From an uncultured Clostridia bacterium (GTDB lineage Bacteria; Bacillota; Clostridia; TANB77; CAG-508), in the NCBI GenBank assembly GCA_947624525.1, contig CANQKT010000032.1, positions 1 to 32,000 of the forward strand: a stretch of 32,000 nucleotides of DNA. Direction: 5' to 3'. Below the pieces are notes generated by a model. That model was not told where the DNA came from. It searched no databases and saw nothing but the letters and a program-made list of their open reading frames with translations. A program made the position numbers and the translations under genes. Shown piece after piece: positions 31,146-32,000 of this stretch (positions are counted from its first letter, which is position 1; each line of letters opens with the position of its first letter).

Positions 31146-32000
31146 ATGATGAGAGGTAACAATAAGAATTGGGATAATCGCAAAACCGTTGGGGCTGTAG
31201 AGAGAGAGAGAGAGAGAGAGAGCGGTATTCTTAGTAAAACAGAAAAAAATTATACTTTAAAATTAATCATACCAATTATAATCTCAATAATAATATTAAG
31301 TTTAGCATTTTATGGATTTTTTAGTTTTAAGAAAACACAAAATAATGAAATTGCGTATAATGCTGAACAATTAAGAAGTTTAGAATATAAAGAATTAAGT
31401 GAAGAAGAACAATATGCAGACACAAACAAAAATATAAAGTTTGCGCCATTTTTTGCTGCTGATTATGAAGGGGATAATTATTCAAAAAGATTATTGGGGG
31501 CATGTAATGAAATAGGAAGAACAGACAATATGTACATAGAAATAGGTGTAGATGGAGATGGAACATTTCAAAATGGGGTAATTACAGTTAATAGTCAAAA
31601 CTTCAAGTACATAATGAAGATGCCTAGTAGCTCAATTTTAAAGAATAATTGTATTTCAAATAATATTAAAACAATAGAATTAAATAATATAGAATCAGGA
31701 AACTCACAATTATTGATGGGAGATATAGAATCAGTAATTAGAGGGGTGGAAGATTATTCAAGAGAGAACGAAATAACATTAAAAGGAACATGGGTTCCAG
31801 ATAATAAAGATGAAGAGCCACAAGAAATCGAAAAAACTATAAAGGTAACAGTAGATTGGTATGGAAGCGCAAAGGCAGATCTTTATACACCATATACTAG
31901 AATAAATTTGACGGATTTTCAAAAATCTGAAAATAAGATAATAGAATTTGATTTTACTTTAGAGGAAACTAAAGAGCAATTATTGCCAAAGGGAAATGTA
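31146..32000 (+). CDS. N-terminally membrane-anchored protein of unknown function, 5' partial view (runs off the window)
   Basis: ATG at 31146 with AGGAAAGG 7 nt upstream. TM segment LKLIIPIIISIIILSLAFYGFF at about aa 37-59. Open frame for 285 codons to the window end. Absent from the track because it is incomplete. Confidence 0.7.
   Translation, partial: MMRGNNKNWDNRKTVGAVERERERESGILSKTEKNYTLKLIIPIIISIIILSLAFYGFFSFKKTQNNEIAYNAEQLRSLEYKELSEEEQYADTNKNIKFAPFFAADYEGDNYSKRLLGACNEIGRTDNMYIEIGVDGDGTFQNGVITVNSQNFKYIMKMPSSSILKNNCISNNIKTIELNNIESGNSQLLMGDIESVIRGVEDYSRENEITLKGTWVPDNKDEEPQEIEKTIKVTVDWYGSAKADLYTPYTRINLTDFQKSENKIIEFDFTLEETKEQLLPKGNV
31199..31222 (+). repeat. (AG)12 dinucleotide microsatellite inside codons 18-26 of the 31146 ORF
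   Basis: Direct reading. It encodes ERERERE. Confidence 0.95.

Follow-up and report, generated by a model that had tools for sequence, protein, structure and literature searches.

A 32,000-nt stretch of DNA from an uncultured Clostridia bacterium (assembly GCA_947624525.1, contig CANQKT010000032.1, positions 1 to 32,000; hereafter "the window") carries twelve uninterrupted AG units near the start of a gene for a giant surface protein, designated gene 1. This (AG)12 microsatellite, at positions 31199-31222 of the forward strand, is likely to act as a translational ON/OFF switch driven by slippage, and the resulting states would be reversible and heritable. A second gene of the same family (paralog 2), located beyond gene 1 on a longer contig, has a tract of the same type in the same leader and would be switched independently. 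The copy in paralog 2 is frameshifted at the tract, and the length of its tract differs between near-identical strains.

The proposed mechanism is as follows. The tract would encode part of the cytoplasmic portion of a signal-anchor protein, where alleles with n = 9, 12 or 15 units would be in frame and would specify a charge-neutral (Glu-Arg)n stretch. Slippage during replication by any unit count other than a multiple of three would put the ribosome in a frame with a stop 3 or 12 codons later, before the anchor. The surface would then be free of the protein until a later slip restored the frame, while three-unit changes would merely lengthen or shorten the Glu-Arg stretch. Gene 1 would require n = 0 mod 3 and paralog 2 would require n = 1 mod 3 (7, 10, 13); because these requirements differ, independent switching of the two genes should be possible. 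We infer that switching occurs at a high, reversible rate and that variation of an exposed adhesin in this way is adaptive in the gut.

Reading frames and product of gene 1

The 5' part of gene 1 is an open reading frame (ORF) of 285 codons at 31146-32000 on the + strand, which is still open at the end of the window, although stop codons are common in this genome. The tract begins 53 nt from the ORF start. Codon 18 (GTA) takes its first A, codons 19-25 read ERERERE, and the last AG falls within codon 26 (AGC), so that the region reads GTA-(GAG-AGA)3-GAG-AGC, or V-ERERERE-S. An earlier note on this DNA, made from the sequence alone, had placed (AG)12 at codons 18-26 of the ORF from 31146, ahead of a transmembrane (TM) anchor, and these coordinates and codons were verified. 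The same note had called the tract unexpected by chance. This is borne out: no other dinucleotide run of at least 5 units is present in the window (the runners-up are (AT)4 and (TA)4), and the chance expectation for such a tract is ~5e-12 under a first-order Markov model of the window, both strands included. Dinucleotide repeats slip at roughly 6-8 units or more, a length that (AG)12 exceeds.

All four Glu codons in the tract are GAG, the minority codon, which accounts for 16-24% of Glu codons genome-wide. Synonymous changes to GAA would stabilize the tract, and none has accumulated. The uniform use of GAG despite its minority status argues that the repeat is maintained at the DNA level and not for the peptide. 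An (AG)n run gives AGA-GAG in all frames. A length change that preserves the frame adds or removes Glu-Arg pairs in the cytoplasmic tail and, being charge-neutral, should be tolerated.

Translation signals upstream of the tract consist of a ribosome binding site (RBS), AAGGAAAGG, at 31130-31138 (7 nt before the ATG), and tandem ATG ATG codons at 31146 and 31149. In an alignment of 5' regions, this RBS/start block (31130-31151, + strand; GAAAGGnAAGGTGTnCGGATGATG) is kept in paralog 2 and in the closest homologs. No ATG, GTG or TTG is present in gene 1 between the tract and the TM segment, and since the RBS and ATGATG are conserved in the homologs, the tract lies inside the ORF. A translation start 3' of the tract was therefore rejected. 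An alternative upstream start in another frame was also rejected, because no start codon exists 5' of the tract in either of the other two frames, one of which is blocked by a TAG at the 5' edge of the tract (GTAGAG).

To define the frame consequences, the gene 1 ORF was rebuilt in silico with n = 6 to 18 AG units. The ORF is open only at n = 6, 9, 12, 15 and 18, and at every other n it stops 3 or 12 codons past the tract, before the anchor. Alleles with n = 8, 11 or 14 (the -2 nt frame) terminate at a TAG at 31232-31234 (+ strand), 3 codons past the tract, and those with n = 10, 13 or 16 (the +2 nt frame) terminate at a TAA at 31258-31260 (+ strand), 12 codons past it. Note that the earlier reading of these outcomes had both stops and both distances right and had their assignment swapped: it is the gain of 2 nt that leads to TAA and the loss of 2 nt that leads to TAG. 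Each out-of-frame allele encodes a peptide of 28-38 aa from which the TM anchor is lost.

The full product of gene 1 is 3,097 aa long when counted from the second ATG. It was recovered in two versions: P0001, which is 100% identical to the window ORF, and P0151, from an NCBI contig of 42,831 nt (the window seems to correspond to its initial 32 kb), which differs from P0001 at 1 of 3,097 residues. Five stretches of P0001 match SpaA (PF17802, prealbumin-like fold; E = 8e-48), and this is the only Pfam family matched. A TM signal-anchor at L40-F61 (31263-31328, + strand) is supported by the sequence, by the N-termini of the family, and by a helix with predicted local distance difference test (pLDDT) values of 82-88 in an AlphaFold single-sequence model that is poor overall (mean pLDDT 45). 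No LPXTG motif and no hydrophobic tail are present at the C-terminus (...SQFKVTYGIEKE). Together, the SpaA domains, the N-terminal TM segment and the lack of LPXTG identify the predicted product as a giant surface protein that an uncleaved N-terminal signal-anchor retains in the membrane. The class of sortase-anchored SpaA/Cna adhesins and pilins was considered and rejected, since SpaA domains are present but the sorting signal and tail are absent. Giant surface proteins of this kind probably function in adhesion.

An exhaustive HMMER search yielded 339 relatives of the gene 1 product, ranging up to ~5,000 aa. In almost all of these, a short basic N-terminus leads directly into the TM helix, and the tails are 5-15 residues long without an ER repeat. 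Faint or weak matches to Glug and MucBP also occur in homologs. A word-indexed protein search gave no match for either the 285-aa query or paralog 2, even though the identical protein is in the collection and was recovered by HMMER. Genome and metagenome contigs scanned with the protein, and metagenome contigs scanned with a 3'-anchored tract pattern, gave no relative or tract.

Paralog 2: a frameshifted and length-polymorphic tract

A contig from an ENA assembly (L009) is identical to the window over 30948-32000 (1,053 nt), also contains (AG)12, and extends past gene 1. Paralog 2 begins at L009:11680, ~2.2 kb beyond the gene 1 stop and ~11.5 kb downstream, with an AAA-ATPase/PDDEXK_9 gene intervening. 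Its promoter, RBS, ATGATG and leader (MMKNNDEKFNNRKTVGAVERERER; ...NRKTVGAV) are shared with gene 1, and an uninterrupted (AG)9 follows at L009:11733-11750. On the 42,831-nt NCBI contig this tract would fall at about 42,680. The 25 nt just 5' of the tract match gene 1 at 24 positions, and past the tract the two genes share 59% DNA and 43% protein identity. The TM segment and ectodomain of paralog 2 are in the +1 frame, so that the ORF from its ATG ends after 29 aa and would be open only at n = 7, 10 or 13. The frameshift occurs exactly at the tract, and the remaining ORF is intact for ~170 codons to the contig end. The gene caller began this gene at an internal GTG.

Using a neighboring gene as the handle for a homology search, we retrieved the paralog 2 locus from two other assemblies. 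In one of these (L017, from ERZ27249180) the tract is (AG)12, at L017:6829-6852, versus (AG)9 in L009. Over 7,173 aligned nt the two contigs differ by 10 mismatches, only 2 of which fall in the first 6.8 kb, and by a single indel, which is the 6-nt difference in the tract. A change from 9 to 12 units with no other indel and only 10 single nucleotide polymorphisms (SNPs) means that the AG tract in this leader is unstable while nearly all else is unchanged. The motif is thus demonstrably unstable and frameshifted copies of it exist, as both paralog 2 alleles (n = 9 and n = 12) are out of frame.

Eight SNPs are clustered within 65 nt at the start of the paralog 2 ectodomain (L009:11886-11950 versus L017:6988-7052) and cause the changes R>K, K>E, D>N and S>N. 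In this variable surface-protein gene the cluster resembles a patch of mosaicism or gene conversion.

Several observations weigh against a switch. Gene 1 has n = 12 in both assemblies that cover its tract, and these are not independent, because they are identical over the 1,053 nt they share and their proteins are one residue apart. The only polymorphism, that of paralog 2, is a multiple of three units, with both alleles OFF. No pair of ON and OFF alleles at one locus was found among the assemblies compared, gene 1 being in frame and paralog 2 out of frame in two strains. Consensus assemblies at ~4x coverage cannot show heterogeneity within a population. In addition, an ER repeat or tract is present in 0 of 150 family representatives outside this species, and the tract is therefore young. 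Further copies were sought in two ways. Exact matches to guessed partial products, in both ON and OFF forms, did not reveal the gene 1 5' end in two other samples, and an exact match to the neighboring ParB gave three more contigs, all of which end short of the tract.

The earlier note had proposed that tract lengths be compared among related strains, and had considered that changes confined to multiples of three units would tell weakly against switching. The comparison gave a mixed outcome: the tract of paralog 2 varies, that of gene 1 is constant in the two near-identical assemblies, and the paralog 2 step is indeed three units, yet it separates two alleles that are both out of frame. The core of that note, a surface-protein gene turned ON and OFF by slipped-strand mispairing in its tract, is well supported by the reading frames, by the product, by a paralog frameshifted at its tract, and by the fact that the 9-versus-12 difference is the sole indel.

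Origin of the tract and comparison with known systems

The 5' regions of gene 1, paralog 2 and the closest homologs, P0002 and P0003 (58-59% identity, GCA_947630065.1), were aligned. A candidate promoter of the sigma-70 type at 30750-30777 (+ strand) consists of TTGACT, a 16-nt spacer (16-17 nt across the alignment) and TG-TAAAAT, and is kept in 4/4 of the aligned regions. An upstream box (AAAAAGATA...AAATGTAAAAT), the promoter, the RBS and ATGATG are common to all of them. The conserved regions are located at 30670-30692 and 30750-30777 in the window, at L009:11516-11632, and at L010:2850-2950 and L011:490-600 in the contigs carrying the homologs. This conservation suggests a common regulator or an expression-site-like 5' module for giant-adhesin genes.

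Other features of the family were noted in the course of this comparison. Giant-adhesin genes in two species have in common an upstream box (AAAAAGATAnnnnAAATGTAAAAT), the motif TCCGTA and a promoter that is nearly the same. Contigs L010 and L011 (GCA_947630065.1) carry giant SpaA-domain genes in tandem arrays, with three such genes on L010. P0002 and P0003 have identical promoters and identical first ~58 residues and then diverge, which suggests recombination among 5' ends in the family. Two N-terminally truncated relatives, P0125 and P0046, were examined for hidden frameshifted simple sequence repeats (SSRs). Neither supports the presence of one, and P0046 simply starts at an upstream GTG. 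An A12 homopolymer lies just 5' of the TM-coding region of P0125 (L012:61-72), in a gene with no canonical in-frame start on a contig that begins near by; it might be a second type of SSR in the family.

The tract itself is part of a leader insert at 31156-31222 (+ strand), in which 43 nt plus the tract stand in place of 10 nt (ATAGAATACG) of the closest homologs. This insert is common only to paralog 2. The closest homologs have no tract and read ATGATGAGAGATAGAATACGCGGTATT (MMRDRIRGI) after the ATG. Tentatively, the leader insert (57-nt) and the AG tract could form a transferable switch cassette that gene conversion or duplication has brought to one and the same codon in two or more diverged paralogs of this species. 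Such an arrangement would amount to a contingency system evolved in a commensal Firmicute and would allow combinatorial, independent expression of ~3,000-aa adhesins, possibly with an extra layer contributed by a palindrome in the 5' untranslated region (5'UTR) or by 2-nt recoding. We consider this extended proposal possible but doubtful.

The absence of the tract from other family members, with ATGATGAGAGATAGAATACGCGGTATT at the corresponding site in the closest homologs, is also what would be expected of a neutral microsatellite that expanded recently from an AG-rich proto-repeat (AGAGATAGA in the homologs). Under this explanation paralog 2 would be a pseudogene with a drifting tract, and frameshifts in gene 1 would be occasional deleterious mutations; the out-of-frame state of paralog 2 in the two strains, with no ON/OFF pair observed, fits as well. 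A drifting pseudogene does not readily account for the persistence of a pure tract and a near-identical 25-nt 5' flank in two paralogs that otherwise share 59% DNA identity, or for a paralog 2 frameshift situated exactly at the tract with the rest of the ORF intact over ~170 codons. The class of gene and the position of the tract also match classical contingency loci. Moreover, a 12-unit tract in an ORF will yield ON/OFF variants whatever its origin. On balance a purely neutral repeat is unlikely.

Selection on the protein is another potential source of such a repeat. If (Glu-Arg)n were a spacer in the cytoplasmic tail, only in-frame changes would be permitted, and length variation would tune the tail with no switching. 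The frame of gene 1 is open at n = 12, the one length difference is of three units (9 versus 12), and a charge-neutral (ER)n could presumably vary in length without upsetting the positive-inside balance of the anchor. What makes a spacer improbable is that both paralog 2 alleles are out of frame, so selection for frame cannot explain their three-unit step. The exclusive use of GAG for tract Glu residues and the 5-15-residue tails of other family members, which lack an ER repeat, also speak against it.

A very improbable alternative, leaky recoding, rests on sequence logic: AGA-GAG is readable in every frame, and a 2-nt slip on AGAGAG would re-pair the Arg (AGA) and Glu (GAG) tRNAs. The ribosome or RNA polymerase could then restore the frame at low efficiency, with the tract setting the level of expression, and the retention of paralog 2 with an intact downstream ORF, though out of frame in two strains, would be accounted for. 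This idea is speculative, as no tool result supports it, and efficient slippage by 2 nt on dinucleotide repeats is not known to occur in bacteria. Finally, a sequencing or assembly artefact behind the tract or its length difference, which ~4x coverage of the contigs and the susceptibility of dinucleotide repeats to PCR stutter might suggest, is the least credible explanation, since the same (AG)12 appears in the NCBI contig of a metagenome-assembled genome (MAG; the window) and the ENA assembly, tracts of 18-24 nt with unique flanks are well within one read, and stutter mostly produces changes of +/-1 unit and not three.

What is known of phase variation in gut commensals comes mainly from invertible promoters. 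Most documented switches driven by repeats belong to mycoplasmas and to Gram-negative pathogens (Helicobacter, Neisseria, Haemophilus, Campylobacter). The gene 1 tract has the structural hallmarks of an SSR contingency locus, namely a pure repeat, inside an ORF, with a predicted surface product. The mechanism of slipped-strand phase variation is a classical one; here it would operate in an uncultured lineage of gut Clostridia, on giant adhesins, with the same leader and tract in two paralogs and with metagenomic assemblies that directly show the tract to be unstable.

The closest functional parallel is H. pylori oipA (hopH), a gene turned on and off by CT (equivalent to AG) dinucleotide repeats located where it encodes the signal peptide; sabA and babA are also listed (PMC10564699). 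Shared features are the dinucleotide itself, its location in the 5' coding region of an export signal, a surface adhesin as the product, and, as proposed for gene 1, frameshifting by slipped-strand mispairing (PMC10564699). As with the Hop genes, a paralogous family is involved in which repeat numbers differ between strains (PMC10564699). There is no sequence homology to Hop/OipA, as Pfam gives SpaA only and the relatives are giant Clostridia proteins; the two bacteria also belong to unrelated phyla. Unlike the H. pylori proteins, the gene 1 product is ~3,100 aa long with an uncleaved N-terminal anchor, its repeat specifies charged (ER)n residues on the cytoplasmic side and not a portion of a hydrophobic signal peptide, and the host is a Clostridia lineage of ~25-29% GC.

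Two systems in Gram-positive bacteria are also similar. In Streptococcus gallolyticus, GCAGA repeats in a leader peptide cause phase variation of the pil1 pilus, expression of which is stochastic and heterogeneous (PMC3894217). Here too an SSR is located in a short 5' ORF of a gut-associated Firmicute and would affect a surface structure of the SpaA/pilin type, but the pil1 pentanucleotide alters a separate leader peptide and relieves a terminator (attenuation), whereas the present dinucleotide would act by frameshift within the structural gene (PMC3894217). The Gardnerella nanH3 gene has a poly-C tract in its ORF, and its variation within cell populations has been demonstrated, with length variants that are full-length or truncated (bioRxiv 10.1101/2020.09.16.300947). 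It likewise belongs to a Gram-positive mucosal commensal and has its SSR inside the ORF of a cell-surface protein, but the nanH3 tract is a homopolymer, and our evidence comes from comparisons between strains and between paralogs.

If the switch is real, uncultured and very AT-rich gut Clostridia would stochastically vary their largest exposed antigens. Consensus MAGs would then misannotate such genes as truncated, as in the call of paralog 2 from an internal GTG, and repeat lengths in metagenomic reads could report the state of adhesin expression in situ.

The upstream palindrome and the surroundings of gene 1

A palindromic element at 30831-30988, upstream of gene 1, has arms of 48 nt (30831-30878 and 30941-30988) and a GC-rich spacer of 62 nt (30879-30940). 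It lies inside a ~315-nt insertion in the 5'UTR, 3' of the conserved promoter, and the insertion is absent from paralog 2 and the homologs. Related copies are present in L001, a relative, between rsmG and parA and after parB (window 30826-30990; L001:8921-9101, 10904-11140 and 13386-13444). The inner arm sequence varies between copies and is self-complementary within each, indicating compensatory changes. For the 5'UTR RNA a hairpin of very high stability is predicted (-138 kcal/mol, z = -9), and Rfam gave no match anywhere in the window. The element looks like a dispersed palindromic element, similar to repetitive extragenic palindromes (REP) or miniature inverted-repeat transposable elements (MITE), and may affect the fate of the mRNA. 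A hexanucleotide repeat, (TTTTGC)3, lies directly 5' of it at 30805-30822, within the same insertion.

The earlier note had further proposed that phase variation by the AG tract is stacked on an inversion switch formed by this upstream repeat. Invertible promoters are established switches of gut bacteria, as in Clostridioides difficile cwpV and the Bacteroides invertons, and the present locus resembles these in having an inverted repeat upstream of a surface-protein gene in a gut setting. It differs from them in that the promoter is outside the repeat, the spacer is 62 nt long and GC-rich, and the element is dispersed in unrelated intergenic sites of a relative. No promoter-like site was found in the spacer, the best candidate (30750-30777) being outside and upstream of the repeat. 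No ORF of at least 100 aa lies between parB and gene 1, and no adjacent recombinase gene was seen, although the remaining ORFs of the window were not all screened. A single orientation is available, that of the window; ENA contigs break in both arms, with the end of L015 at 30869 and the start of L009 at 30948, as any palindrome could cause. On the features that could be tested, the invertible promoter was rejected because the promoter is upstream of the repeat, none is in the spacer, the insertion is lacking in the paralog and homologs, and copies are dispersed. Nothing indicates inversion in the one orientation available, and this part of the earlier proposal is unsupported; the inverted repeat is a multi-copy palindromic element in the 5'UTR.

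By its ParB, the product of the neighboring gene, the organism groups with MAGs of uncultured gut Clostridia that are very AT-rich and come from rabbit, human, Hadza and deer samples. In the closest of these, L001 (ParB 89% identical), no giant gene follows parB, and gene 1 is therefore accessory.

The window has a GC content of 25-30% and contains dnaA, DnaA-box repeats and a GC-skew minimum at 20-21 kb; because the cumulative GC skew turns near dnaA, the window spans the replication origin. The DnaA-box repeats (TGTGGATAAC / GTTATCCACA) at 19569-19743 and 21376-21398 flank dnaA (19992-21332), and a (TAG)6 run at 19569-19586 adjoins them. Between gyrA (7054-9513) and gyrB (15322-17238), ~5.8 kb (~9600-15300) have a GC content of only 14-21%. 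This stretch encodes a ParA/MinD-like ATPase fusion (459 aa), a HerA/TraG-like P-loop ATPase (591 aa) and two proteins without a Pfam match, includes a T-rich 13-mer array of 17 copies (10522-10743), and may be an inserted island. Another ENA contig (L014; ERZ27249647 NODE_17856) is 100% identical to window positions 29274-30719, and its upstream 950 nt differ, encoding a 324-aa protein with SRP54_N/SRP54 and ParA-type matches and a UPF0122 protein. This difference stems either from a chimeric assembly at low coverage or from a rearrangement close to the origin.

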